From UHGV virus genome UHGV-0180761: a stretch of 13,254 nucleotides of DNA; one strand, 5' to 3'. The stretch comes from a virus. Under the pieces are notes generated by a model. The model was not told the origin of the DNA, ran no database searches, and saw only the letters and a program-made list of their open reading frames with translations. This document shows, piece after piece, positions 1 through 13,254 of the stretch. Each line of letters starts with the position of its first letter. Position 1 is the stretch's first letter. Both the position numbers and the translations under genes were made by a program.

Positions 1-49
1 TTGCAACAAGTTGCTGTTGTTTTATTTTGTACACAAAGTATCTTTAACT

Positions 50-604
50 TTATTTATCCCCTGCAGGAAACCTCTTATACAAAGTTGACACACCAACATC
101 ATAGATAATCGCCACCTTCTGGCGAGGAATGCCTGATGCAATTAATCGCCCGGCCTGCGCCCATTGTTCTAGTGTAAGTTTGGGACGACGTCCCCCAATT
201 CGTCCCTGTGCGCGAGCAGCTTCCAGTCCAGCTTTTGTTCGTTCAACAATCAGTTCTCGTTCCATTTCAGCCAGGGCACCCATCACATGAAAGAAAAAAC
301 GCCCCATCGGTGTGCTGGTATCAATAGCATCCGTCAGGCTGCGAAAATTAACGCCACGTTCGCGCAACTCCTCAACCAGAATGACCAGATGCCGCATACT
401 GCGCCCCAGCCGATCCAGCTTCCAGACAACCAGAGTGTCACCTGCCGATAATGTCCTGAGCAGTTTTTTCAGTCCCGGCCTTTCGGACTTTGTACCGCTT
501 ATCTTGTCTTCAAAAATCAGCTCGCATCCTGCACAGTTCAGCGCATTACGTTGTAGATCTGTGTTCTGGTCATTTGTTGACACACGTACATAGCCAATAA
601 GCAT
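50..604 (-). CDS. pin: Serine recombinase, DNA invertase of the Pin/Gin/Hin/Cin family (184 aa)
   Basis: N-terminal catalytic motif GYVRVSTNDQ, resolvase core, C-terminal HTH (GIPRQKVAIIYDVGVSTLYK). Start taken at internal Met (MLIGYVRV), giving 184 aa; the 12-codon extension in the ORF track has no support. Confidence 0.9.
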   Translation of the reverse strand: MLIGYVRVSTNDQNTDLQRNALNCAGCELIFEDKISGTKSERPGLKKLLRTLSAGDTLVVWKLDRLGRSMRHLVILVEELRERGVNFRSLTDAIDTSTPMGRFFFHVMGALAEMERELIVERTKAGLEAARAQGRIGGRRPKLTLEQWAQAGRLIASGIPRQKVAIIYDVGVSTLYKRFPAGDK

Positions 605-658
605 GGTAGATCTCCCTGACAAAAGCAGGAATGATGCCATTTGCTCGTTATTTCTGCA

Positions 659-684
659 TTTTCATAAATGTTGGTTTGGGAGAA
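659..684. promoter_or_regulatory. Candidate invertase crossover (pix/gix-like) site
   Basis: TTTTCATAAATG-TT-GGTTTGGGAGAA: two 12-bp half-sites around a 2-bp core, the right half resembling the GGTTT-type half-site of gix/hix sites as I remember them; about 55 bp upstream of the pin start. Left half is a poor match. Confidence 0.3.
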
Positions 685-795
685 GCGGCGAAAAGGGATG
701 TGGGCACAGGAGATAATCAGATACCGGATAAAACCGTTCTTACCCGCGCCGAACTTATCCTTCTGCGCGGTTTTCGTGTCTATACGATGCATGGA

Positions 796-1380
796 TTACT
801 CCGGATATTTAAAAATTACGTAGGTATGCGACGGGCAGAGTTTGTTAAGCACACACTCGACAACGGTGTCACCCCAGATACGCAGTGCGGAATCACAGGG
901 ATCGCCACATGTCATCCAGGTGGTGTTGGTGGTGGTTGGCATGTTGACCTGCCAGTAATACCGCCATTCCGGCGCATTCACCGCGTCAGTACAGGCCGAT
1001 GAGCAGGTGAACGTGCTTTTGTCGTATCGCGTGATGGTGGCATCTGGTCTGCCCAGGGCAGCAAGCTGTGCAAGATAAAAATCCTCGTTGATGCCGCCCG
1101 CCAGGTTAACCTTCGCATCCAGCCGTTGCTGACGCTGGCGAAGGGTCTGTGTCCCTGCGGGAATACATTCATCCGGCAGGCCGCACAGACGCTCCCAGCG
1201 ATTTATCAGTTCGGTGGTGGTGCGCGGATCCAGCTCCCGCATCAGGGCATCCGCACGCTGATGAACACGGGTTAATGACGGTGCCGCACCGGCAATCGCC
1301 GGATCGCTGGCTGACCACGCCGGACCGGGGGGCAACAGTGCCGACAACAGACGGATGTAATCATCGTTTGTCACGTCCAT
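796..1380 (-). CDS. ymfQ: YmfQ-like phage baseplate/tail-associated protein (DUF2313-type, 194 aa)
   Basis: ORF 796..1461; start moved to the internal Met at 1380 ([12 protein letters not shown]), which has a GGGGA Shine-Dalgarno about 7 nt upstream and gives 194 aa. Family assignment is from memory, not a search. Confidence 0.6.
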
Positions 1381-1497
1381 GAAATCGTCCCCAGTACCCC
1401 AGCTCGCGGACATCCTTCCCGGTGGGTTCATCAAACTCCAGTACGGAGAGTGTCTCACCATGAGCGATAATCGGTTTCTTTAACTCAAGCTCTTTCA

Positions 1498-1854
1498 TTA
1501 CTGGTAATCCCCTTCTTCACCGTGGAACTCAAGATCAACCGTGCCTTCTTCGGCATTATGGTTCGCTTCTCCGTGCAGCCAGGCGGACGACAATACATAG
1601 ACCTGACCGTTCGCCAGCTCGGCAGTGATGGTCATCTCATCAGACGAGGTGATTTTGCTCACCGGAAAATTCTTCGGCACCTTGAAGGTCCCTTTGACAT
1701 AAGGCGCACGGTGAGTTTCCTTGCGGTCCACTGAACCGTCCAGGCCGATGATGTCATCATTGACCGTCCTGTTCATGGGCACCTCAATGCCGCCGGTCAG
1801 CGATAGCTGCTGACCGTCAATTTTGAAATAACAGGTTCCCCCGATACGGGCCAT
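1498..1854 (-). CDS. Hypothetical phage protein, 118 aa (possibly a tail-tube-like remnant of the structural module)
   Basis: Clean ORF whose ATG overlaps the stop of the upstream 490-aa ORF (TAATG arrangement), which suggests translational coupling. No diagnostic motif recognised; function is a guess from position. Confidence 0.5.
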   Translation of the reverse strand: MARIGGTCYFKIDGQQLSLTGGIEVPMNRTVNDDIIGLDGSVDRKETHRAPYVKGTFKVPKNFPVSKITSSDEMTITAELANGQVYVLSSAWLHGEANHNAEEGTVDLEFHGEEGDYQ

Positions 1855-3326
1855 TATGCAGACTCCTCTGAATACTGAAGACGGAACTGGTTAACCACGG
1901 CAAAAACACGCAACTGGTTAACATAGTCAGGCGGGAACAGCGTGTTCAGGCGGTTCGGATCGCTGGCATCACGCTCCACAACCAGGTACTGCTTAAACAG
2001 TTCGTAGTTTTCCACGATCCCCGCACGCTCAAGCTGACGGTAGGTTGCCAGCAGTTCCCCTTTGATCACCGCCGGAGTGACAATCGCCTGACCGGGACCA
2101 AAGCGGGTACCGTCACTGGCAAGCTTGTGACGCCCGTACTTACTGGTAATGACGGATTTCAGTTTGCGCAGTACATACGCGCTGGTATGCAGCGTCTCAC
2201 TGTCGAGGTAGCTGTTATCCGCAACCCCGTAAGCGTTTTTCCTGTACGTGGTGACATCACGCTGAATGCGCAGTACCCCGCTTTCGACATACGCCGTTGC
2301 CACGCCATGAGACAGCAGGGTCTGTTGTTCGGTCATCGTGAACCGTTTCCCCTTCGGCGCAGGCAGCATACCCACCAGCTCACCGGTCTGCGTGGGACGT
2401 GCCGGATCGTTGCGGATAAACACCGCTGCGCGGGCGGTACGGCTTGCCGCCAGCTCGTCGGCAGGCGTCTGGGTCTCTTTTTCGTACCCCGCCAGGGTAA
2501 TGTGCTGCTGGTTAAACTGGTCACCTGCGGTCACCAGTTCTGACAGCGTACCGGTCTTTGCCGTATACACATGACCATACAGCTGACGCGCATAGCTCCA
2601 GCGACCGCTGGTATCGTTCATCTCGGTCAGGCGAATTTCGTTTGCCCAGGCTGTCCAGTTCGGTTCTTTGGGACGAACCACCTCGCCGTCACATTCGGCG
2701 GCCTGCTCGTACAGGGCGATGATTTTTTTCCAGAGCCACTGTGCGCAGGTCAAATCATCCTGCGTTCCCCACTGGCGCTTTTTAGGGCTGAATACAACCG
2801 CATCAGGATGGCGAGTTAAAAACTCCTGTTCAGCCGTCTGCGTGTCCGGTTGCGAAGCGTCCGGACGAGAAGTTTTTTTATCTGACGGATCATGTTTTGA
2901 TTTTACTGACGGATCCCCGCCAGATTCTGACGGGTGAAAACCCGCTTTTTTGCCAGATTTCGACGCATCAAATTTTGACGGGTCAGATTTTGATGCGTCA
3001 GATTTTGACGGGTCAGAATCTGACAGTTGAGAAAATGCCGCTGCCTGAAGCTTCGCAACGTTAAGCTGATAAACATTCGACGCATTGCGGTTACCCTGGC
3101 GACGCGCCTTACGCGTTAACCAGCCTTCTGCTTCCAGCCGTGCGATAGCCGTTCTGACGGTACTCATTCCCGCGCCAATCTGGCGGGCAATGGTTTCAAT
3201 TGATGGCCAGCACACACCTTCGTCATTACTGAAATCAGCCTGGCGGGCCATAATTGCCACGCTGGATAATTTCATGCCTGATGCAGCGCAACCATCCCAT
3301 ACATAGCCGGTTAATTTAGTGCTCAT
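1854..3326 (-). CDS. YmfN-like chimeric protein (490 aa): N-terminal winged-helix replication-initiator-like domain, low-complexity repeat linker, C-terminal phage structural or packaging domain
   Basis: ATG at 3326 with AGAGG Shine-Dalgarno; N-terminus has an HTH-like segment (SIETIARQIGAGMSTVRTAIARLEAEGWL); middle is a D/S/K/P-rich repeat; the C-terminal 250 aa look like a phage virion or packaging protein, but I cannot tell sheath-like from terminase-like without a search. Confidence 0.7.
   Translation of the reverse strand: MSTKLTGYVWDGCAASGMKLSSVAIMARQADFSNDEGVCWPSIETIARQIGAGMSTVRTAIARLEAEGWLTRKARRQGNRNASNVYQLNVAKLQAAAFSQLSDSDPSKSDASKSDPSKFDASKSGKKAGFHPSESGGDPSVKSKHDPSDKKTSRPDASQPDTQTAEQEFLTRHPDAVVFSPKKRQWGTQDDLTCAQWLWKKIIALYEQAAECDGEVVRPKEPNWTAWANEIRLTEMNDTSGRWSYARQLYGHVYTAKTGTLSELVTAGDQFNQQHITLAGYEKETQTPADELAASRTARAAVFIRNDPARPTQTGELVGMLPAPKGKRFTMTEQQTLLSHGVATAYVESGVLRIQRDVTTYRKNAYGVADNSYLDSETLHTSAYVLRKLKSVITSKYGRHKLASDGTRFGPGQAIVTPAVIKGELLATYRQLERAGIVENYELFKQYLVVERDASDPNRLNTLFPPDYVNQLRVFAVVNQFRLQYSEESA
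2955..3026. repeat. Tandem repeat, about 5 imperfect copies of a 15-bp unit (GATTTTGACGGGTCA / GATTTTGATGCGTCA), inside the YmfN-like CDS
   Basis: Directly visible: agatttcgacgcatca aattttgacgggtca gattttgatgcgtca gattttgacgggtca gaatctgacag. Encodes pentapeptide repeats (SKSDA/SKSDP) on the minus strand; related degenerate copies continue upstream to about 2893. Confidence 0.8.
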
Positions 3327-3335
3327 GACCGACCT

Positions 3336-3674
3336 CTATTTCCCTGAATTTACGACGAAACTGTTCGAGCGGGCTGAAGCACTCATGCTCATAGCCTTCG
3401 CGGAGGTAGATAACACGTTGTGTTTCCGGCTCCCAACGAATGACTCTGACGGGCACACCGTAGTGATCTTTGAACCAGCGGTTAACTTGTCGCAAAGGAC
3501 TGTCTCCTTCTGCCGGTTGAAATCACCCACAGCCCACTCTGCAAAGCTGTGGGTTACAATTTCCCTGTCACCTGGTACATTTACTGCATAGCAATACTCC
3601 ACCTTCGCTTTTCCACCCGGTACAGGAAGCGCAATCAGTTGCGAGCGACGGTAGTGTGTTGTTAAACTGTTCAT
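3336..3674 (-). CDS. ymfM: YmfM-like protein (112 aa)
   Basis: ORF length equals K-12 YmfM (112 aa) and sits in the same position after the YmfL-like gene; ATGA start/stop overlap with the upstream gene. Identity by length and synteny only. Confidence 0.6.
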
Positions 3675-4234
3675 GCGTTAGTTTCTCCACAGTCACGACA
3701 CGCCACGGCGCCCGGAGCTGCACACTCGCGGGCGTCACTACTTTCTGAAACGCAAAAGATTTTGTAGACCAGTGCTGCATGCTCCTGCAGCTTCGAAATT
3801 GAGAGATACAGCTCATCGTTAATTGCTGTCTTCTCATGCGGTTCCACTACACCGTCTTCAATTGCTGAACGAATCTGTTTTGAATAACTGCCGATCTGTT
3901 CAATGACTTCCAGCAGGCGTTGGTTGATATCGGCGTTGTCCACATCCTCGACGTCAGGAAGAGACACAAAGACGCCATTTGCAGACTGCGCCACAGCATC
4001 AGCAATGAAGTGAGTGCCACCAGCACGCTGTAAAACCATTGCCCATCCCAGCGGGAAAATCTGATCGCCATCTGCACGAAGGCGGTTGAATAAAGCGTTT
4101 TCTGTTACATCGAGCCAGTCAGCCGCTTCAGCGTAACCACCCGGCAACGCCGCGATAGTTTTTCTGACAGCTTTCACGTACCACTCAGGCTGTTTTTCTA
4201 TTTTCCAGTGATGCTTACCCACGGTTAGCCTCAT
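3671..4234 (-). CDS. ymfL: YmfL-like protein (187 aa), function unknown
   Basis: First gene downstream of cro on the minus strand, coupled to the YmfM-like gene by an ATGA overlap; C-terminal CxxC pair ([17 protein letters not shown]). Name by synteny and length (K-12 YmfL about 189 aa). Confidence 0.6.
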
Positions 4235-4265
4235 CGTTCTGTGGTTAAAAATTGAAAGTGTTCTG

Positions 4266-4466
4266 CTAATCTTTCGGATAGATATCCGGTCTTAAGTCAG
4301 ATTTCGTAATTGCACCTGACGTGCATTGCTCAAGTTTTTTAGCCAGCACAAAACTGGCTTTTTTATAGCCATTGAAAACCAGCCGTAAGTAGCCAGGTGT
4401 TGAGCCAACTTTTCCGGCCAACTCGCCCTGCTGTTCTTTGGTTAAAGAGTCCCAATACGCTTTCAT
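4266..4466 (-). CDS. croE: Cro-like repressor (66 aa)
   Basis: Short form MKAYWDSLTKEQQGELAGKVGSTPGYLRLVFNGYKKASFVLAKKLEQ with an HTH; GAGG Shine-Dalgarno upstream of ATG at 4466; divergent from the cI-type repressor across an operator region. The 167-aa ORF in the track is an artefactual extension through the operators. Confidence 0.75.
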   Translation of the reverse strand: MKAYWDSLTKEQQGELAGKVGSTPGYLRLVFNGYKKASFVLAKKLEQCTSGAITKSDLRPDIYPKD

Positions 4467-4468
4467 AC

Positions 4469-4493
4469 AATATGTACCTCCGGTGTACATATT
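4469..4493. promoter_or_regulatory. Operator-like palindrome AATATGTAC-N7-GTACATATT (OR site)
   Basis: Perfect 9-bp inverted arms directly upstream of the cro start, in the cro/cI intergenic region. Confidence 0.55.
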
Positions 4494-4520
4494 ACATGAT
4501 TGAAATGAACCTTCAAGATA

Positions 4521-4541
4521 CTTGTACCTTAACGGTACAAG
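4521..4541. promoter_or_regulatory. Operator-like palindrome CTTGTACC-N5-GGTACAAG (OR site), overlapping a putative PRM-like promoter
   Basis: Perfect 8-bp inverted arms 16 bp upstream of the repressor ATG; TTTAAT at 4545-4550 is a possible -10 that would give a near-leaderless repressor mRNA (inference). Confidence 0.55.
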
Positions 4542-4556
4542 GGTTTTAATTTCGTT

Positions 4557-5231
4557 ATGAAAACAATCCATGACATCCGGCGGTCTAACGCCAGAAAACT
4601 GAGAGATGGTGTTGGCGGGAATTCTTCCTTTGCCACTATGATTGATCGCGAGCCAACCCAGACCAGCAGGTTTATGGGAGATGGTGCTACTAAAAATATC
4701 GGTGACAGCATGGCACGACACATCGAAAAATGTTTCGACCTGCCTGTCGGATGGCTCGATCAAGAACACCAGACAACGAACATCACAAAAAAACCTGATG
4801 TTTCAATCACTAATAAACAAATCACATTAGTCCCTGTCATATCATGGGTACAGGCCGGAGCATGGAAAGAAGTTGGATATTCTGAGGTTGATTTGAGCAC
4901 AGCAGAAACGTATCCCTGCCCTGTACCCTGTGGGGAAATGACTTATATCTTGCGGGTGATAGGTGATTCAATGATTGATGAGTACCGCCCGGGAGACATG
5001 ATTTTTGTCGATCCTGAAGTACCTGCCTGCCACGGTGACGACGTTATTGCATTGATGCACGATACAGGCGAAACCACCTTCAAAAGGTTGATAGAAGATG
5101 GGACACAGCGTTATCTCAAAGCGTTAAACCCAAACTGGCCTGAGCCTTACATTAAGATCAACGGTAATTGCTCTATAATTGGTACAGTGATTTTCTCAGG
5201 AAAACCAAGAAGATACAAAATCAAAGCCTAA
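4557..5231 (+). CDS. cohE: CI-type prophage repressor with C-terminal S24 (LexA-like) autopeptidase domain (224 aa)
   Basis: C-terminal S24 motif (VIGDSMIDEYRPGDMIFVDPE ... TFKRL, Ser/Lys dyad context); divergent from cro; length equals K-12 CohE (224 aa). Confidence 0.85.
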   Translation: MKTIHDIRRSNARKLRDGVGGNSSFATMIDREPTQTSRFMGDGATKNIGDSMARHIEKCFDLPVGWLDQEHQTTNITKKPDVSITNKQITLVPVISWVQAGAWKEVGYSEVDLSTAETYPCPVPCGEMTYILRVIGDSMIDEYRPGDMIFVDPEVPACHGDDVIALMHDTGETTFKRLIEDGTQRYLKALNPNWPEPYIKINGNCSIIGTVIFSGKPRRYKIKA

Positions 5232-5243
5232 TCAATGTTTATG

Positions 5244-5266
5244 AACCTGCTTCGGCAGGTTTTTTT
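5244..5266 (+). terminator. Rho-independent terminator downstream of the repressor gene
   Basis: AACCTGC-TTCG-GCAGGTT hairpin followed by a run of 6-7 T, starting 13 nt after the repressor stop codon. Confidence 0.7.
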
Positions 5267-5270
5267 ATAC

Positions 5271-5303
5271 TTGACAATGTACCTTTGAGATACATAATGT
5301 ACC
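5271..5303 (+). promoter_or_regulatory. PL-like sigma70 promoter with two direct AATGTACC operator half-sites
   Basis: TTGACA (5271-5276), 16-bp spacer, CATAAT (5293-5298); AATGTACC at 5276-5283 and 5296-5303 overlap the -35 and -10, sharing the TGTACC core of the cro/cI operators. Confidence 0.55.
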
Positions 5304-5380
5304 CAAGCGAAACAACGAACAGGCAGGACGCCCACGAAGTAGCCGCCTGGGGCATATGAAGTCCAGGATGATTCGTTAGC

Positions 5381-5407
5381 AACAAAAAAGCGCCCTACAG
5401 GACGCTT
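5381..5407 (-). terminator. Minus-strand intrinsic terminator-like hairpin
   Basis: On the minus strand: AAGCG(T)CC-TGTAG-GGCGCTT followed by TTTTGTTG; lies about 240 nt downstream of the stop of the 144-aa minus-strand gene. Confidence 0.4.
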
Positions 5408-5465
5408 AGCTCTTTAACAATCTGGTCCCCATCAACAAGTAACTGATAACTTGAGGAGATGTGAA

Positions 5466-5672
5466 ATGCACAAAACAGAACCCAAAATCGTCGCGCCTGG
5501 CTACACAGATGAGGAAATTTATGAGTGGATGACAAAGAAGCTGGCAGCTATAAACCAGCTTCGTGAAGTGCTGTCTTATCGACAGGAAACAATAGACTCC
5601 TTAAAAAAACTGGATCAGGAAATCACGGTTTTATCACAGGATGTTACTTTAGATATTGTGCAGACAAATTAG
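5466..5672 (+). CDS. Hypothetical small protein (68 aa), first ORF after the PL-like promoter
   Basis: ATG at 5466 with GAGGAG Shine-Dalgarno 6 nt upstream (the ORF track started at an upstream TTG); predicted helical/coiled-coil-like. Its 3-prime end overlaps the convergent 144-aa gene by 29 nt. Confidence 0.4.
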   Translation: MHKTEPKIVAPGYTDEEIYEWMTKKLAAINQLREVLSYRQETIDSLKKLDQEITVLSQDVTLDIVQTN

Positions 5673-6078
5673 GATCCCATTCATTTTCGTCAAAATCATC
5701 AAAGTGATGAATTTGTGATCTCCAGTCTCGATAATCTAAAAATTTCTGGGCGGTTACGCTTATTTTATCAAGTGTGAGTTCATCCTGAATTGAAAGAAGA
5801 AGTTCATCAAATTTCATCTCATTAATCTGTTTTGGCATCCAGTGATGCTTCATCAGAATAAGGTGAACCAGAGCCTTTTTCCCATTCAACTGATTATAGG
5901 GAGTGCCGAATTTCTTCCGGTGCTCATGTAAGACAAGGTCCAAAAGAGTAAGTAATGTTGCCCTTGATTCAACTTTGCTTATTTCGACTGATGACACTAC
6001 CCCACTGATTTCAATGCCCCGATACTTTCCAACATTTTCACAGTGGGATTTGTACAGCGTATAGATATTACCGGACAT
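5644..6078 (-). CDS. Hypothetical protein (144 aa), AT-rich moron gene of unknown function
   Basis: Clean ORF with AAGGA Shine-Dalgarno about 7 nt upstream of ATG at 6078; visibly more AT-rich than flanking prophage genes; opposite orientation to the surrounding plus-strand operon. No motif recognised. Confidence 0.6.
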   Translation of the reverse strand: MSGNIYTLYKSHCENVGKYRGIEISGVVSSVEISKVESRATLLTLLDLVLHEHRKKFGTPYNQLNGKKALVHLILMKHHWMPKQINEMKFDELLLSIQDELTLDKISVTAQKFLDYRDWRSQIHHFDDFDENEWDPNLSAQYLK

Positions 6079-6092
6079 TTCTTTTCCTTTTG

Positions 6093-6143
6093 CGTTGTTG
6101 GGGATAACCAGATTAACCGAATCCTTGTTGTTGGGGAATAACC
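6093..6143. repeat. Direct repeat GTTGTTGGGGATAACCAG / GTTGTTGGGGAATAACCAGG upstream of the 144-aa gene
   Basis: Two 18-20-bp near-identical copies (one has an extra A) separated by about 13 bp, sitting 15-65 bp upstream of the minus-strand start codon. Confidence 0.6.
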
Positions 6144-6364
6144 AGGTCCACCTCGCCTGATGTGGCTAAAAGCAGGCACATAACAGCTAAGTATTTTCAA
6201 CCAGAGAGAATCCTTAGCGTTGTGGTGAATGCGGCTCAGCGCACGCGGGTTAAGGTTGAGGCTGACAGTCGACCTTCTGTGGATACCCACCCGCCTGGTG
6301 TGCAACCTTCGCCAGGCACCGGGAGGCACCCGGCACCACAACTTTATGCTGTGTGTAGTCCTGG

Positions 6365-6410
6365 CGGTACCAGTTTGTACCCTTGCTTCCGGCTGGTACC
6401 GTCCTTTTTA
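6365..6410 (+). promoter_or_regulatory. Inverted repeat CGGTACCAG-N19-CTGGTACCG followed by a T-run; operator cluster or terminator-like element in a non-coding stretch
   Basis: Perfect 9-bp arms; the spacer contains TTGTACCC (same core as the cro/cI operators); followed by TCCTTTTTA. Lies in a roughly 400-bp GC-rich region with no convincing ORF. Confidence 0.35.
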
Positions 6411-6546
6411 CAAAACAGAGAAGAGCATCACCGGACGACGGGCTCATAACCCAATCCATCCGGGCGGCTGCCACCGCAGGTGTTCTTCTCTGTTTTGTGG
6501 AGAAACTAATCGGCCTTGCAGGGTCGATATGATGAGGAGCAGCAAA

Positions 6547-6909
6547 ATGGCTAGCGAACGCAGTACTGATGTGCAGGCATTTATCGGGGAGCTGGACGGC
6601 GGCGTATTTGAAACCAAAATCGGCGCAGTTCTCAGTGAAGTCGCTTCCGGTGTGATGAACACGAAAACCAAAGGTAAGGTCTCACTCAACCTGGAAATCG
6701 AACCATTTGATGAGAACCGTGTGAAAATCAAACACAAACTCTCATATGTTCGCCCGACTAACCGCGGGAAAATTTCCGAAGAAGACACCACCGAAACGCC
6801 GATGTATGTCAATCGCGGTGGTCGCCTGACTATTCTGCAGGAAGACCAGGGACAGTTACTGACTCTTGCCGGTGAACCTGACGGAAAACTCCGCGCAGCA
6901 GGTCGTTAA
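6547..6909 (+). CDS. YfdP-like prophage protein (120 aa), function unknown
   Basis: Start set at ATG 6547 (GAGGAG 8 nt upstream) rather than the 226-aa track ORF; 120 aa and position upstream of a YfdQ-like gene match the CPS-53 yfdP-yfdQ-yfdR arrangement as I recall it. Confidence 0.55.
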   Translation: MASERSTDVQAFIGELDGGVFETKIGAVLSEVASGVMNTKTKGKVSLNLEIEPFDENRVKIKHKLSYVRPTNRGKISEEDTTETPMYVNRGGRLTILQEDQGQLLTLAGEPDGKLRAAGR

Positions 6910-6974
6910 TATCGTTTTTAATTAACTGATTATTTATCTCATCACTGAATATCTTTATATAGTGAGGACTTATT

Positions 6975-7799
6975 ATGTCTCAGAACTTAGACGCAACCGC
7001 AATTAATCAAATCCATGCCCTTATTTCTGCTCAGGGTGTTAATGAAATTATCAGTAAGATTGGTGCCGATGCTGTGGCATTGCCTGAGAATTTCCGCATT
7101 CATGACCTGGAAAAATTTAATTTAAATCGCTTCCGTTTCCGTGGTGCGCTTTCCACTGCCAGCATTGATGACTTTACCCGTTATTCTAAAGATCTTGCAG
7201 ATGAAGGCACCCGCTGCTTTATCGATGCTGATAATATGCGTGCCGTCAGTGTGCTTAACCTGGGTACTATTGATGAACCAGGCCACGCAGATAACACCGC
7301 CACTCTCAAACTGAAAAAGACAGCACCGTTCTCTGCTCTGTTGTCTGTTCACGGCGAGCGTAACTCCCAGAAATCACTGGCAGAATGGATTGAAGACTGG
7401 GCCGACAACCTTGTGGGCTTTGATGCTAATGGTGACGCCATTCAGGCAACCAAAGCGGCTGCGGCGATCCGTAAAATCACAATTGAAGCGAACCAGACTG
7501 CTGATTTTGAAGACAATGACTTCAGCGGCAAACGCTCCCTGATGGAGTCTGTCGAAGCGAAGACCAAAGACATTATGCCAGTGGCATTTGAATTTAAATG
7601 CGTTCCGTTTGAAGGTCTGAAAGAACGTTCTTTTAAATTACGCCTCAGCATTATCACTGGCGATCGTCCTGTACTTGTTCTGCGCATTATTCAGCTGGAG
7701 GCGGTGCAGGAAGAAATGGCTAACGAATTTCGCGATCTGCTTGTTGAGAAATTCAAAGACAGCAAAGTAGAAACCTTTATTGGTACTTTCACCGCCTGA
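6975..7799 (+). CDS. YfdQ-like prophage protein (DUF2303-type, 274 aa)
   Basis: Clean ATG with TGAGGA Shine-Dalgarno; length matches CPS-53 YfdQ (274 aa); sits between YfdP-like and YfdR-like genes. Confidence 0.75.
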
Positions 7800-7811
7800 T
7801 TTGATTACTGC

Positions 7812-7833
7812 AAATGCCCCTGCGGGGGCATTT
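7812..7833. other. Perfect stem-loop AAATGCCCC-TGCG-GGGGCATTT between the YfdQ-like and HD-domain genes
   Basis: 9-bp GC-rich stem with 4-nt loop, 12 nt after the YfdQ-like stop; only a short TTT follows, so it is more likely an attenuator or RNA-processing/stability element than a strong terminator. Confidence 0.35.
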
Positions 7834-7927
7834 ATGGAAACGTAATTAACTCAATAATCGCCGGATGGTGAGGGCTTCCTTTTACCAGAATTCAGTGCGG
7901 TGCAGCGCAAATAACGTGGAGAACAAA

Positions 7928-8476
7928 ATGTCATTTATTAAAACTTTTTCTGGGAAGCATTTTTATTATGACAGGATAAATAAAGACGATATCGTTATTA
8001 ACGATATCGCGTTTTCCCTTTCAAATATCTGTCGCTTTGCAGGACATCTTTCACACTTCTACAGCGTCGCCCAACATGCGGTTCTTTGCAGCCAACTGGT
8101 ACCGCAGGAATTTGCTTTTGAAGCGTTAATGCATGATGCAACAGAAGTGTATTGCCAGGACATCCCCGCTCCACTGAAACGCCTTCTTCCTGACTATAAA
8201 CAGATGGAAGAAAAAATAGACGCCGTAATCCGTGAGAAATACGGGTTACCCCCGGTTATGAGTACGCCCGTGAAATATGCCGATCTCATCATGCTGGCAA
8301 CCGAACGCCGCGATCTCGGGCTTGATGATGGCTCTTTCTGGCCTGTACTGGAAGGCATCCCGGCAACAGAGATGTTCAACGTGATTCCACTGGCACCGGG
8401 CCATGCCTACGGGATGTTTATGGAACGCTTTAAAGAGCTGCATAAGATGCATAAACAATCCAGACAGCGAAATTAA
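7928..8476 (+). CDS. HD-domain phosphohydrolase, YfdR-like 5-prime-deoxynucleotidase family (182 aa)
   Basis: HD-domain signature residues (RFAGHLSHFYSVAQHA ... LMHDATEVY ... D); start set at ATG 7928 with GGAG Shine-Dalgarno instead of the upstream ATG at 7865. Confidence 0.8.
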   Translation: MSFIKTFSGKHFYYDRINKDDIVINDIAFSLSNICRFAGHLSHFYSVAQHAVLCSQLVPQEFAFEALMHDATEVYCQDIPAPLKRLLPDYKQMEEKIDAVIREKYGLPPVMSTPVKYADLIMLATERRDLGLDDGSFWPVLEGIPATEMFNVIPLAPGHAYGMFMERFKELHKMHKQSRQRN

Positions 8477-8519
8477 CTAGTGAAATAGTTTTGTAGCAAA
8501 AGAAATGAGGTTATCAAAA

Positions 8520-8765
8520 ATGCTTCAAATGCTGACACTTGAGGAATGGGCTGCGGAAAAATACAGAAGTAATCCTCCAAGCGTGTCCACATTGCGTCGT
8601 TATGCTAAGCAGAATTTATTTTGTCCACCGGCAATGAAACAAGGTCGACTATGGCGAGTGCGTGAGGACGCAGAGTTAGTTGGGGAATTAGTTACTCCTG
8701 TCATCAAGAAAAATGATTCTATTATTCTACAAAGGATTTTAAGTAATGGCAGCCAGACCACGTAA
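8520..8765 (+). CDS. xis: Excisionase (81 aa)
   Basis: Small basic protein directly upstream of and overlapping the integrase start by 20 nt; start set at ATG 8520 (GAGG 9 nt upstream), giving 81 aa, the length of K-12 XisE. Confidence 0.7.
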   Translation: MLQMLTLEEWAAEKYRSNPPSVSTLRRYAKQNLFCPPAMKQGRLWRVREDAELVGELVTPVIKKNDSIILQRILSNGSQTT

Positions 8766-9873
8766 AAATAATGTTTCAGTCCCGAACTTGTATCCGCTTT
8801 ATAGTAGAAAAGTAAATAAAGTCTATTGGCGATATAAACATCCAGTGACCGGGAAGTTTCATTCTTTAGGCACAAACGAAGCTGAAGCCATTGCTATTGC
8901 CACTGAGGCAAATTCACGCCTGGCTGAGCAAAGAACCCGGCAGATTCTGGCTATCAGTGACAGGATCGCAACCAGCAAAGGAAAAGCAATCACAACGTCA
9001 ACCTGGTTAGATCGCTATCAAGCAATCCAGGAAGACAGACTGAAAAGTGGCGATATAAAGCTCAACACCTATAAACAGAAAGCCAAACCAGTATCCTTGC
9101 TCAGGGAACGAGCAGGACTGAAGTTGATATCAGCCGTTGATGTCAGAGATATAGCACAATTACTTGATGAGTATATCTCTGCTGGACAGCCTAGAATGGC
9201 CCAGGTCGTAAGGTCTGTATTGATCGATGTGTTTAAGGAAGCACAGCATTACGGCGAAGTTCCACCAGGGTATAACCCTGCTCTTGCAACGAAGCAACCC
9301 AGAAGGAAAATTAGCCGTCAACGCCTCAGCCTAGAAGAATGGAAAAAAATATTCGATATCGCAGACGCCGCTCATCGTTATATGGGAAATGCCATGCTCC
9401 TAGCTTTGGTCACTGGGCAGCGTTTAGGAGATATATCCAAAATGAAATTTAGTGATATTTGGGAGGATCATCTTCACGTCATTCAGGAAAAGACCGGGAG
9501 CAAAATCGCTATCCCTCTTTCTTTACGTTTGAATGCTATCAACTGGTGTTTACGTGATGTAGTAGCTCGCTGCCGTGACTACGCAGTCAGCCCATACTTA
9601 GTGCATTTTTTCCGTACTACATCACAGGCTGAACGTGGCGCACAGGTAAAAGCTAATACACTAACGATGAACTTTAGCAAGGCACGTGATCTGGCAGAAA
9701 TTGATTGGGGTACTGGAACTCCAGCAACTTTTCATGAACAAAGATCTTTATCTGAGCGTCTTTACAAGGAACAAGGGATTGATACCAGAAAGTTACTGGG
9801 CCATAAAACCCAGCAGCAAACCGATCGTTACCATGATGACCGAGGGAAAGGTTGGAGCAAAGTAGCATTGTAA
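8746..9873 (+). CDS. intE: Tyrosine integrase, phage integrase family (375 aa)
   Basis: C-terminal catalytic region with conserved Arg/His/Tyr context (LLGHKTQQQTDRYHDD), N-terminal arm-binding region; 375 aa equals K-12 IntE; preceded by xis. Confidence 0.9.
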   Translation: MAARPRKNNVSVPNLYPLYSRKVNKVYWRYKHPVTGKFHSLGTNEAEAIAIATEANSRLAEQRTRQILAISDRIATSKGKAITTSTWLDRYQAIQEDRLKSGDIKLNTYKQKAKPVSLLRERAGLKLISAVDVRDIAQLLDEYISAGQPRMAQVVRSVLIDVFKEAQHYGEVPPGYNPALATKQPRRKISRQRLSLEEWKKIFDIADAAHRYMGNAMLLALVTGQRLGDISKMKFSDIWEDHLHVIQEKTGSKIAIPLSLRLNAINWCLRDVVARCRDYAVSPYLVHFFRTTSQAERGAQVKANTLTMNFSKARDLAEIDWGTGTPATFHEQRSLSERLYKEQGIDTRKLLGHKTQQQTDRYHDDRGKGWSKVAL

Positions 9874-10078
9874 AAATTTAAGCGTTTCAACGCCATCTTG
9901 ATTTTCTTAACATTATGGAAAAGAACCAAACAGTCCGCTTTGAGCCAGGAACAGAGTTTTCTAATATGGTGAACTGCAATGCCTGAACATATATTAGACC
10001 AATCTTTTGAAATTTTGCTAAAGAATCATCAAATAATGTCGATAATAATGATATACCATATGAAAGGGAATATAATTT

Positions 10079-10576
10079 ATGCCACATTTAGACGAAATTC
10101 GCAGAAAGCTAAGGAAACAATGTCCTACATCCGCAGGCGAGGATGGTGAAGAGTATGCTCTTAAATGGTTAGAAAACTCCCAATGGGAGTTTGTATATGT
10201 CGAACAAGGAAAAACAGACCTATCTAAAAGTTTAAAAATATATGGGGGAAAACGCCCCGATTTTATTATTAAAGTTGATAGTAACACCTTTATTCTTCTG
10301 GATGCAAAGTATCATTCAACAGAGAACTGCACCTCCTTTACACTCACAGAGTGTGAAATAGGTAAGTATCGCGCACTCAAGCAATTTTTAATTAATAAAA
10401 ATAGCGAACTTACGTTCGAAGTGATTTTCATGGTATTTCCAAAAGAAAAAGATGGCAAGAAATTTGTATTTGTTAGTTTGGATGAGTTTGATAAAGGAGA
10501 ATGTGTAACTCTAGCATCAAAAAATGCAACAAAGATTAGTCTACTCAATAGAGATAATTTATGGCTTGACCATTAA
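10079..10576 (+). CDS. Hypothetical protein (165 aa) with a PD-(D/E)xK nuclease-fold signature
   Basis: Motif P60-D61 (GGKRPDFII) followed 14 residues later by hydrophobic-hydrophobic-D-A-K (FILLDAKY), with upstream Glu candidates; AAGGGA Shine-Dalgarno upstream of ATG; located in the AT-rich cargo after int. Confidence 0.6.
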   Translation: MPHLDEIRRKLRKQCPTSAGEDGEEYALKWLENSQWEFVYVEQGKTDLSKSLKIYGGKRPDFIIKVDSNTFILLDAKYHSTENCTSFTLTECEIGKYRALKQFLINKNSELTFEVIFMVFPKEKDGKKFVFVSLDEFDKGECVTLASKNATKISLLNRDNLWLDH

Positions 10577-10865
10577 TGTTAAAAGCGACTTGTTTCTGCA
10601 CTTTTTAAGATTGCTATTTTAATTATGCCGACTATAGATGAAATCTGTGAGTCGTAGTGTGTTTAATAAATATATTCCAACGAAACCTCAGATTATATCA
10701 GATTGCCAGCAAGACTACTGTTAGGAATGTTAGCGTCACAAAATTGACTTTCAAAATGGGTTGAATGTCCGCAGTGAACGAAAAACTGACTTGGCACAGT
10801 CACAGCTAGAAAATTAGTAAGACATCCAATGACTTTTCCCCGATATTGGCTGAATGTCTTTATTA

Positions 10866-11705
10866 CTATCTAAATCTAACCTCACAAAACCAGTTATTTT
10901 CCGAGAGACAACTATAGAGTGCGGATTGCCAAGAATTTAAGCTTACCGATTTTTTTCCAGCTGCGGTTTCAGTCAAGTATTTTTTTAACTCGATACTCCC
11001 CCCCCCATCGTAAATTCTCTTTGCGATATATTCAATGCTCGCTAGTTCTTCAGCTGCATGTGATGCATAAAGAGCAGACAACTTAAATGCCTTAAAGTGA
11101 TACTTCATACGTTTAGCTAAAAGTGGGGGGCAATCTTCAGGTGGCTCTACATAAAACTCTATCGCTACAGGAATAGATTCCCGTATTTTTGCCTTAACCC
11201 AAACAAATGCTTCTACATCATCGTAATATGGGTGCAAAGTTTCTTCTTCTGAGCAAATTGGGATATCTTCGCTCTTTGTTTTATTACAATCCTGACAGGC
11301 TGGTATAAGATTAAAAGGCGATACAGCCAATGATGGAAAATGTGCTTTAGGTAAGTGATGATCTAATGTCGATACTACTCTTTGAGAACATAGTGGGCAT
11401 CTTCCATGATCTGGAAGTGACATTAACTTGTCATAATAGATACGCCCTGGGGCTAATTTCTTAGCCATTCTGCTTGTATAGACAACCTTCATTTCGTCAA
11501 CTGTAACAACAGTGGCAACATTGTCTTTAGGCAAAATTGTATGTAATTGTGCAATTGATACTTTTGCATCAAATTCTATTGAGGAATCTTCTATTTCTTG
11601 AGAACATGCTATAAGCCTCCTCTTTAAATCTTCATCGCGAACTCGATCAATGCATGCATTAAATACATCCAACGCACTATCATTCGGTTTTAAGAGTTTT
11701 TTCAT
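10866..11705 (-). CDS. HNH endonuclease-domain protein (279 aa), second gene of an ATPase-nuclease operon
   Basis: Zinc-finger HNH signature CPLC(103-106) ... DHHLPK(115-120) ... N132 ... CQDCN(137-141); the ATG overlaps the stop of the upstream ATPase gene (ATGA), so the two are translationally coupled. Confidence 0.8.
   Translation of the reverse strand: MKKLLKPNDSALDVFNACIDRVRDEDLKRRLIACSQEIEDSSIEFDAKVSIAQLHTILPKDNVATVVTVDEMKVVYTSRMAKKLAPGRIYYDKLMSLPDHGRCPLCSQRVVSTLDHHLPKAHFPSLAVSPFNLIPACQDCNKTKSEDIPICSEEETLHPYYDDVEAFVWVKAKIRESIPVAIEFYVEPPEDCPPLLAKRMKYHFKAFKLSALYASHAAEELASIEYIAKRIYDGGGSIELKKYLTETAAGKKSVSLNSWQSALYSCLSENNWFCEVRFR
10998..11006. repeat. Homopolymeric C9 tract (G9 on the coding strand) inside the HNH gene
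   Basis: Directly visible: ctccccccccccatc at 10996-11009; encodes Gly234-Gly236 of the HNH protein. Confidence 0.9.
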
Positions 11706-13249
11706 GATTGGTTTCTCTTAATTAAAAACAAAGCCCGCAAAATACCTCTAGCTTCAATTCCAAGTTGCCCATTGAAATTTTGCACAGCTGAATCGTAATC
11801 TTCGAATTTATTTACAGCATCGTCAAGAAGATTATGGAATCCAGAGTCGGTATTTTCCAATCCAAATACCTCCCTCGTTAGTATACCCACATTTTCACCG
11901 AAAGATTCTGTTTCTAGCCTTTCTACTTTAGACAAGTAGCCACTACGCCACAACTTCCACGTACAGCTTCGAGGAACTTCCTGGAGAACTACAGGAGAGT
12001 GGGTAGCTATTATAGATACTGCATTCCTATTAATTAATAAATCAGAAAGAGACCTTACAAAAGCTGATAATAATGGTGGATGGAGATGAGCTTCTGGTTC
12101 ATCTAAAAAAACCAAGCTTCTTTCTTCCATTGTCTCGACAAGTCTAGTGATAGTTAGCAATACAATTTTGTGCCCGGAACTTAAATTTTTGAATACTCTT
12201 CCTGCAATATCTTTAAACTCATCTTCATCTTGTCTATTCAATATTGATGCTACATTAATGTCAGCAAATACTGGATCTGACTCCAGCTTATCCACAGCCC
12301 TTTTCCAACGTTCAATTTTCCCTCCTGCCTTACAAGAAAGCATACTTTTCACGAATTCATTTTTCAATATAACAGGGCTTTTGGGCGGGAGACTTTTCTC
12401 ATCACCTTTTTTTACTCTTTTTAGTCCCACATATGAAAACTGTATACCTGTAGATTTATCTTTTTTTTCTGATAAAGGTTCTGTTTCATCAAAAGCGCTA
12501 AAAGTGACTGATACTACGTTAGAGAAAAGCTCACCAGCTAGTTGATCTTTAGATGAAAATTCACCGACTTTTGTTGGCGTTGTATTTTCGTCAATTAATG
12601 AACTAATCATATTATTCATTAAATGCGTTTTCCCAACACCATTCCGACCAATTAGCACATGAATATTTGTTGGGGGATTGCTCTCTGGTATCACTTCAAA
12701 ACTTAACTTAATACGGTCAGAGTCAGTGCCTTTCATCACTGGTGAGTTATATGAAAATGAATATTTTGAAAGTCGAGCACCTCCGTTCGCAAGTCGACGA
12801 AACTGTCCCTTAATAGATGTATGGCTGACGGATCTCAGAAGAGATATGCTAGTGACCCTCTCATTTATTGCTTTATTATATATATCTTCACTCAGAGCAA
12901 TATCATTAAGCGATGATAATATTTCATTTCGGATATCTTCTCCTAGTTCATTCAACACTTCGTAAAAACTATCATCTTGACCAACGGAGAAAAAACTCTC
13001 ATCTAGTTTTTCGAAAGCTTCAGGGATACTTGGTCTACTTTGACCTTTCGCCATATTCAATTGGCCAATTTTAGTAGAACCAATAATATTCTTATCCTTA
13101 TTTGAATCTATATAAACCAATGTATACATTGTAGAAAATTCAAACCAGTCATCCCAATTATCAGTAATTAAATAGGCACAGTTAGATTGTTCAACAGAGC
13201 ACATACTTCCCGCAGGCAGCACCTTAAATCTCATCTTTATCCCACTCAT
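11702..13249 (-). CDS. ABC-type (AAA_15/AAA_21-like) ATPase, 515 aa, with an unrecognised 200-aa N-terminal domain; first gene of the ATPase-HNH operon
   Basis: Walker A GRNGVGKT (aa 201-208, nt 12626-12649), signature-like LSSGHK (356-361), Walker B LVFLDEPE (379-386), H-loop ATHSP (415-419). In-frame TAA sits immediately upstream of the first ATG, 5 nt from the window edge, so the promoter is outside the window. Confidence 0.8.
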   Translation of the reverse strand: MSGIKMRFKVLPAGSMCSVEQSNCAYLITDNWDDWFEFSTMYTLVYIDSNKDKNIIGSTKIGQLNMAKGQSRPSIPEAFEKLDESFFSVGQDDSFYEVLNELGEDIRNEILSSLNDIALSEDIYNKAINERVTSISLLRSVSHTSIKGQFRRLANGGARLSKYSFSYNSPVMKGTDSDRIKLSFEVIPESNPPTNIHVLIGRNGVGKTHLMNNMISSLIDENTTPTKVGEFSSKDQLAGELFSNVVSVTFSAFDETEPLSEKKDKSTGIQFSYVGLKRVKKGDEKSLPPKSPVILKNEFVKSMLSCKAGGKIERWKRAVDKLESDPVFADINVASILNRQDEDEFKDIAGRVFKNLSSGHKIVLLTITRLVETMEERSLVFLDEPEAHLHPPLLSAFVRSLSDLLINRNAVSIIATHSPVVLQEVPRSCTWKLWRSGYLSKVERLETESFGENVGILTREVFGLENTDSGFHNLLDDAVNKFEDYDSAVQNFNGQLGIEARGILRALFLIKRNQS

Positions 13250-13254
13250 TTATA

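Follow-up and report, generated by a model that had tools for sequence, protein, structure and literature searches.

This report concerns positions 9874-13254 of UHGV virus genome UHGV-0180761, a stretch of 13,254 nucleotides that we call the window. In it the integrase gene of an e14-like prophage, intE, is followed abruptly by AT-rich DNA with three genes: an open reading frame (ORF) of 165 amino acids (aa), here called ORF165, and the pair ptuB and ptuA. The region is the variable cargo slot of a defective e14-like prophage, bounded by intE on one side and by the attachment end at icd on the other. An original prediction, made from the letters of the window, had read it as a horizontally acquired cargo island; that interpretation is essentially right, with corrections on the number of modules, their extent and their donor. 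The features are these, with coordinates in the window.

8746-9873, plus strand: intE, lambda-type tyrosine integrase of the e14-like prophage; left border of the slot, context and not cargo
9874-9964, no strand: conserved e14 backbone tail after the int stop codon; its homology end point varies among prophages
9937-10730, plus strand: cassette A, made up of ORF165 and the flanking DNA that moves with it (about 140 bp upstream, about 150 bp downstream)
10079-10576, plus strand: ORF165, 165 aa, stand-alone PD-(D/E)xK nuclease-like protein of an unannotated family
10731-10774, no strand: cassette junction, inside the 289-bp spacer (10577-10865) between the convergent genes
10775-13254, minus strand: cassette B, ptuAB operon and flanks, running on to window-equivalent ~13469, 215 bp beyond the window
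10866-11705, minus strand: ptuB, 279 aa, HNH nuclease with a zinc-finger-type HNH motif
11702-13234, minus strand: ptuA, 510 aa from the PGAP start, ABC/SMC-type ATPase
12665-13234, minus strand: N-terminal domain of PtuA, about 190 aa, with conserved motifs DNWDDWFEFST and GQDD

A cargo slot between intE and icd

The change in composition is sharp. The G+C content (GC) is 0.481 over positions 1-9873 and 0.361 over 9874-13254, and the lowest value among backbone windows of the same length (3381 bp) is 0.448. A maximum-likelihood fit of a single change point to the whole window puts it at 9858 (log-likelihood ratio 75.3), 15 nt short of the final base of the int stop codon at 9873. None of 1000 shuffles in 100-bp blocks (maximum 23.3) and none of 1000 in 500-bp blocks (maximum 63.9) reached this ratio. 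When GC is compared between the 1 kb to the left and the 1 kb to the right of each position, the step is largest at 9868. The three cargo genes have a GC of 0.349-0.379 and a GC at third codon positions (GC3) of 0.27-0.29, as against a GC3 of 0.39 in int and 0.37-0.65 in the remaining backbone genes; the intergenic spacers of the cargo region are also low, at 0.312 and 0.356. The abrupt shift that had been claimed after int, in coding and intergenic DNA alike, is thus confirmed, and in the sliding-window check proposed for it the region lies below every backbone window of its length. The boundary that had been set at the int stop codon holds for the change point, but homology to the e14 backbone runs 0-91 bp further, to ~9964.

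The position of the slot is clear from annotated genomes. The integrase of the window matches Pfam Arm-DNA-bind_1 (6.3e-37) and Phage_integrase (2.2e-16), and its gene is named intE in E. coli 23CRST035 (NZ_AP045805.1). There the order is xisE-intE-ORF165-ptuB-ptuA, followed after 484 bp by the icd stop codon. The order int-ORF165-ptuB-ptuA-icd recurs in Shigella flexneri and several assemblies. S. flexneri SFBU0723 is 99.95% identical to the window over 5704-13254 (7.5 kb), and PtuA is 100% identical to a Shigella sonnei protein. The region therefore sits between int and the attachment site, in the slot that holds lit, ymfE and ymfD in K-12, as had been supposed. The island does extend past the window end, by ~215 bp that hold the ptuA promoter and leader, but the further components that had been thought possible beyond 13254 are not there. 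Extension toward the icd attachment site gave e14-conserved DNA at window-equivalent 13479-13616 (~225-360 bp past the window end) and then icd, with no additional gene; an ORF scan of the 484 bp beyond the window, and of the 289-bp spacer, gave short ORFs of 31-50 aa only.

Seven e14-like prophages, including a window-like copy, were compared over the stretch from int to icd. Their int genes are 83-92% identical to that of the window-like copy. Homology past the int stop codon ends after 0-91 bp (pairwise blastn), and megablast matches to other genomes stop at window 9768-9952. Similarity resumes 100-240 bp before the icd stop codon, and that flank together with icd is 94-97% identical. Between these conserved flanks, from intE to the 3′-end of icd, the content is unrelated in all seven. 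The six other alleles are as follows.

K-12: lit, ymfE and ymfD (GC 0.359)
GF31: PD-Lambda-5-type methylase and ATPase
MDR_56: DarT fragment, HD protein and macro-domain protein
SW4848: three hypothetical genes and an integrase remnant
20AR0354: two hypothetical genes, one weakly PDC-S02-like
TUM1880: three hypothetical genes and insertion sequence (IS) elements

All seven alleles are AT-rich (GC 0.336-0.421, as against 0.44-0.47 in the adjoining int). Among 5426 complete E. coli genomes the window cargo occurs in three, the K-12 allele in 281-283 and the SW4848 allele in 32, while an intE-like gene is present in 501. The turnover of cargo that a comparison across e14-like prophages had been expected to reveal is thus seen directly.

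K-12 e14 is among the closest known counterparts. It has the same intE-icd slot, is AT-rich there and carries an abortive-infection gene, lit, but its gene content is wholly different from that of the window, whose allele is rarer (3 vs. 281-283 genomes) and consists of two cassettes. The principle common to both is one type of integration and backbone with interchangeable defence cargo. With lit, the Septu-type pair, PD-Lambda-5 and the DarT/macro genes, the slot of e14-like prophages forms a small hotspot for defence, and prophage hotspots that carry defence cargo are a known phenomenon (PMC10121019).

A GC change point right after a prophage integrase gene locates an interchangeable cargo slot. 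This is of use in annotation and in the mining of unknown cargo alleles, as several alleles of the slot, and ORF165, have no known family. Current understanding is unchanged because AT-rich, swappable defence cargo beside int and the attachment site is well documented. The slot of the window is an ordinary instance of this pattern, with a Septu-type pair of known kind; its sole mildly novel part is ORF165, a small nuclease-fold family that recurs in such slots.

It may be added that the SW4848 slot contains, within its cargo, an integrase pseudogene together with an 81% identical duplicate of the icd 3′-end (L010 3220-3429 and ~2661-2809), which suggests that an earlier tandem integration at icd left a remnant. 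The duplicate accounts for partial matches of that query to almost all E. coli.

Two cassettes and the ORF165 family

The original prediction spoke of a single acquired module. Instead, there are two independently mobile cassettes, with a break in nucleotide homology at 10730/10775. Cassette A has 74-77% nucleotide identity to loci in Rouxiella (homology from 9937), in Citrobacter, on a metagenome contig and in Rahnella (homology to 10730), all of which carry an ORF165 homologue without ptuAB. For cassette B (10775-13469) the nucleotide identity is 92% in Xenorhabdus sp. TCT-1 and 86% in Enterobacter genomosp. O, and both of these loci carry ptuAB without ORF165. In Xenorhabdus it stands beside terminase and portal genes and in Enterobacter it is flanked by a P4-type integrase and SIR2+HerA. 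Mobile elements of other genera harbour close relatives of both cassettes, which bears out the claim of acquired cargo. The junction itself (10731-10774) has no Rfam match and no predicted terminator, and a search for flanking repeats as insertion scars of the cassettes gave only short imperfect pairs at chance level. As judged from these sequence relationships, the island is best described as a mosaic of two cassettes that move independently.

In Tatumella saanichensis (L027 4064-8372) a ptuAB cassette of 83% nucleotide identity lies directly after icd, and is followed by IS genes, an HTH-M78 regulator and, ~4 kb on, an integrase 51% identical to that of the window. Two distantly related elements that integrate at icd thereby have the same cargo at their icd-proximal end.

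Where the AT-rich DNA came from is less certain. The lower-GC donor that had been proposed is plausible, but a specific donor is not demonstrable, all seven slot alleles being AT-rich; nor can one be named from the closest cassettes, since these are themselves on mobile elements in higher-GC hosts. It may be that the pool of prophage cargo and defence genes in circulation is AT-rich in general, for example through long residence on mobile elements, mutational bias or tolerance by H-NS silencing, and that the composition does not reflect the GC of one donor. The uniform composition of seven unrelated int-icd alleles suggests a property of the pool more than of one donor. The ptuAB cassette, moreover, keeps a GC of 0.37-0.40 in six genera (Shigella, Xenorhabdus, Enterobacter, Tatumella, Marinobacter and Salinivibrio) where the flanks are at 0.45-0.50. 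On the other hand, in Vibrio sagamiensis and Glaciecola, and only there within this ptuAB clade of roughly 37% GC, the cassette (0.39) equals its flanks (0.40), and distant relatives in high-GC hosts are at 0.53-0.58, so that a host-like composition has been reached somewhere. The data are compatible with a low-GC gammaproteobacterial origin of ptuAB, and we would put the chance of the pool explanation a little short of even. Under it the shift would mark accessory cargo and not acquisition from a lower-GC organism; it refines, and does not exclude, the reading preferred below.

ORF165 has the PD-(D/E)xK core fold, with conserved acids and a lysine in the E...D...(D/E)xK arrangement. Its candidate catalytic residues are E24, D61, D75 and K77, and E24, the GGKRPD61 loop, D75-A-K77-Y-H79 and E93 are invariant in the family. 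The family had 33 proteins in a word-indexed search and 221 clusters in a profile search of 1.84 billion representatives; its members are mostly ~170 aa long and stand alone, and the 221 clusters could be linked to no named family. No Pfam or NCBIfam family matched ORF165 at the cut-offs, and ten distant members of the family were also without a Pfam family. Profile searches of Pfam, NCBIfam, PADLOC and PDB gave sub-threshold hints of RmuC, McrBC, FokI and HYExAFE only.

The homologues of ORF165 recur in accessory settings. In Rahnella one lies between gpV and gpS of a P2-like prophage, which we take to be the place of the non-essential AT-rich orf30 in P2. In Citrobacter and in a metagenome contig homologues are at prophage ends adjoining umuDC-like genes; in Idiomarina one is in an island with SIR2, HEPN-ApeA and AbiTii; others are beside ResIII/NucS/RadC genes. 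This distribution weakly suggests that ORF165 is another accessory, probably phage-exclusion, gene. That it represents an undescribed family of single-gene nucleases, with a cassette of its own, for anti-phage or inter-element exclusion is a more tentative proposal, and we consider it possible without favoring it; the same reserve applies to a second possibility, that the N-terminal domain of PtuA is a new phage-sensing module.

Just upstream of the Rahnella homologue, in the same gpV-gpS slot, there is a gene for a protein of 329 aa without a Pfam or PADLOC match (L002 5844-6833, plus strand). It is another cargo gene of no known family, and a possible partner of the ORF165 homologue there.

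The fold invites comparison with Hjc-type resolvases and small PD-(D/E)xK endonucleases. ORF165 shares their alpha-beta-beta-beta-alpha-beta core, with the E...D...(D/E)xK residues at equivalent positions and spacing, and one might take it for a phage Holliday-junction resolvase (Hjc/RecU type) or a homing-type endonuclease with no part in defence. However, identity to Hjc is just 12-15%, without membership of the family at the sequence level, and ORF165 has an extra N-terminal helix pair and C-terminal strands. Its setting is also different: it lies in the AT-rich slot after int and not in a recombination or replication module, its relatives occur in non-phage islands and as a lone chromosomal insertion, and none was found in 50,697 phage genomes. 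A role as a resolvase or homing enzyme is therefore unlikely.

Still less can be said for ORF165 as a third component of PtuAB, with a part in regulation or sensing or as a second effector. It does adjoin ptuBA, at near-100% identity, wherever it was found in E. coli and Shigella. Elsewhere the association dissolves: of 29 PtuA-related loci from many phyla only the Shigella one has ORF165 (0 of the other 28), and ptuAB is absent beside the homologues in Rahnella, Citrobacter, Rouxiella, Idiomarina and metagenomes. The two transcription units are, in addition, convergent, with the break in nucleotide homology between them. The distribution largely refutes such a role, and we regard it as very improbable. 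ptuB, for comparison, is directly downstream of ptuA in 24 of the 26 loci that have a substantial PtuA match.

The ptuAB pair

The two genes form one operon. The ptuA stop codon overlaps the ptuB start codon (ATGA), and ptuB is translationally coupled to ptuA. An alternative in-frame ATG for ptuA is at 13249. A putative promoter (TTGACA-16-TATTTT) is found ~140 nt upstream of ptuA, the promoter and terminator scan being otherwise unremarkable.

PtuA has the full equipment of an ABC/SMC ATPase as known from Septu: Walker A (G196-T203), the signature LSSGHK (351-356), Walker B (LVFLDEPE, 374-381) and the H-loop THSP (411-414). It matches PADLOC PDC-M01A at 2.9e-210 and the PtuA1/PtuA Septu model at 5e-195 over its full length, as well as AAA_21 and AAA_15 of Pfam, and belongs to a family of at least 7880 clusters at E≤1e-20. 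PtuB, encoded immediately downstream as in Septu, is an HNH (beta-beta-alpha-Me) nuclease. It matches PADLOC PDC-M01B (1.7e-106), Pfam HNH (8.7e-5, above the cut-off) and phrog_10378, an HNH endonuclease family, and has the motifs CPLC (103-106), DHH (115-117), N132 and CQDCN (137-141). The best 25 of its 51 PADLOC matches are to PDC-M01B and PDC-M62B, with no named PtuB model among them. PDC-M01 is an unpublished PADLOC candidate name, whose calls duplicate DefenseFinder Septu calls in a comparative study (PMC11811056). From its sequence, the ptuAB cassette is accordingly classed as a putative two-gene Septu-type anti-phage system.

The N-terminal domain of PtuA stands apart from this scheme. 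Its conservation is strong and spans phyla from Gammaproteobacteria to Cyanobacteria and Campylobacterota. Neither Pfam nor PDB gave a sequence relative, and in a structure search with the full-length model the alignments leave it uncovered. We infer that it is a sensor or assembly domain. At the other end, the model has C-terminal helices (465-509); in Ec78 and Septu the two proteins join into a complex by way of a C-terminal extension of PtuA and a C-terminal helical domain of PtuB (PMC12819146).

Related systems suggest what the pair may do. Stand-alone Septu PtuAB forms a large ATPase-nuclease oligomer with DNA-nicking activity; ATP inhibits it, and it reportedly senses a phage tail-fibre protein (PMC12819146). 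Septu EcB88 cuts tRNA-Tyr in its variable loop, for which Walker and HNH residues are required, and dependence of phage protection on the ATPase and HNH activities has been shown in other Septu systems (PMC13096335). By analogy with Septu and with the PtuAB of retron-Eco7, PtuA and PtuB of the window would form an ATPase-nuclease complex that is inactive in uninfected cells. Phage infection would release the complex to cut nucleic acid, by nicking DNA, by cleaving tRNA-Tyr or both, and this would halt phage replication at a cost to host growth. The catalytic equipment is the same as in the known Septu systems (stand-alone PtuAB, PDB 8EE4/8EE7, and EcB88). The window pair differs in the additional conserved domain of ~190 aa in PtuA, which places Walker A at 196-203 where EcB88 has K43, and in a divergent PtuB that has no significant sequence likeness to solved PtuB proteins. 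Given the different architecture of PtuA and the divergence of PtuB, the trigger and the substrate may also differ from those of known Septu.

The type I-A retrons (Ec78/Eco7) and Ec83 deserve mention here, as their ATPases are the best PDB matches of PtuA in both sequence and structure, and they too have an HNH partner. This could mean that ptuAB is the effector module of a type I-A, Ec78/Eco7-like retron and not a stand-alone Septu. But the only three ORFs between int and icd include no reverse transcriptase, and Rfam gave no match in the island, at E≤1, to a retron or other non-coding RNA; msr/msd RNA and a retron-specific N-terminal extension are both lacking, and PtuA scores 37 bits against the NCBIfam model for retron Ec78 PtuA, whose cut-off is 500. 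Lacking both a reverse transcriptase ORF and an Rfam retron RNA, the locus refutes the retron explanation, short of a retron reverse transcriptase and RNA that act in trans from elsewhere in the genome, and we attach hardly any weight to it.

In sum, we prefer the view that the window holds a variable e14-like slot occupied by two independent AT-rich cassettes, one with a Septu-type ptuAB and the other with ORF165 as an accessory gene. In the lineage in question, Shigella flexneri and sonnei with a few E. coli, both cassettes would have been acquired horizontally. We give this joint reading a probability of about 0.82.

Several observations weigh against it. Similarity of PtuA to solved PtuA is limited to the C-terminal ATPase motifs (E 1e-5 with a single sequence, 1.5e-8 with a profile), and that of PtuB to solved PtuB is limited to the HNH motif (E ~0.9, not significant). 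No experimentally characterised member of this PtuA/PtuB clade was identified, and the Walker A lysine of PtuA is residue 202 as compared with K43 in EcB88; architecture and regulation may differ from those of EcB88. ORF165 matches none of the PADLOC v2.0.0 families at E≤0.01, and hence no described defence model, and some of its homologues are in ordinary chromosomal neighborhoods (L021, L056). Neither the cargo DNA nor its proteins had a match in 50,697 sequenced phage records. Finally, the ptuB frameshift of S. flexneri SFBU0723, described next, means that the system is not always maintained.

In SFBU0723 (L024) ptuB has a 1-base deletion, equivalent to window 11006, which leaves residues 1-236 in frame. 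The gene appears to be pseudogenised there; it is intact in the window.

The defective prophage around the slot

The backbone to the left of the slot is uneven in composition, its GC ranging from 0.38 to 0.60 across 500-bp windows. This heterogeneity might favor the notion that the AT-rich DNA belongs to the native e14 backbone or arose as a chance fluctuation in composition, a notion we reject as next to impossible, given that no block shuffle matched the change point, that the content is in 3 of 5426 genomes as against 501 with an intE-like gene, and that unrelated genes fill the same place in other e14-like prophages.

There is a second, smaller AT-rich patch within the backbone at ~5500-6100, with a GC of 0.38 in 500-bp windows. 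Its ORF (5644-6078, minus strand) has a GC of 0.379 and a GC at second codon positions of 0.27, has no Pfam family and is annotated in NZ_AP045805.1 as "ECs1072 family phage-associated protein". It could be another moron, with the cI-like repressor on one side and the yfdP/Q/R-like genes on the other.

The window also has decayed prophage genes: a pin invertase, a Mu gp48-like fragment, a tail tube gene, CII-like and cI/LexA-like regulators and yfdQ/yfdR-like genes. The ORF at 1854-3326 (minus strand, 490 aa) is a chimera of a helix-turn-helix (HTH) domain and the C-terminal half of a tail sheath. Its residues 30-80 match HTH_36/GntR-type HTH domains; the matches over residues 234-481 are to two domains of a phage tail sheath, the subtilisin-like one and the C-terminal one. 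It looks like the outcome of a deletion that brought together an early gene, for regulation or replication, and a late tail gene, and it marks the prophage as defective. Positions 731-3089 are missing from the otherwise closest complete genome.

At the icd end, the icd terminator takes up the final ~50 bp before the gene and is common to nearly all E. coli. Rfam searches of the 289-bp spacer (10577-10865) and of the 484 bp past the window gave a sub-threshold match to STnc150 only, at this terminator. The match is to the 3′ part of STnc150, an Hfq-binding small RNA (33 bits, where the gathering score is 60; E 2e-4; L001 17738-17831, plus strand), and falls at window-equivalent ~13611-13704, overlapping the conserved terminator region. 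In the corresponding end of e14, K-12 has an annotated small RNA, C0293.

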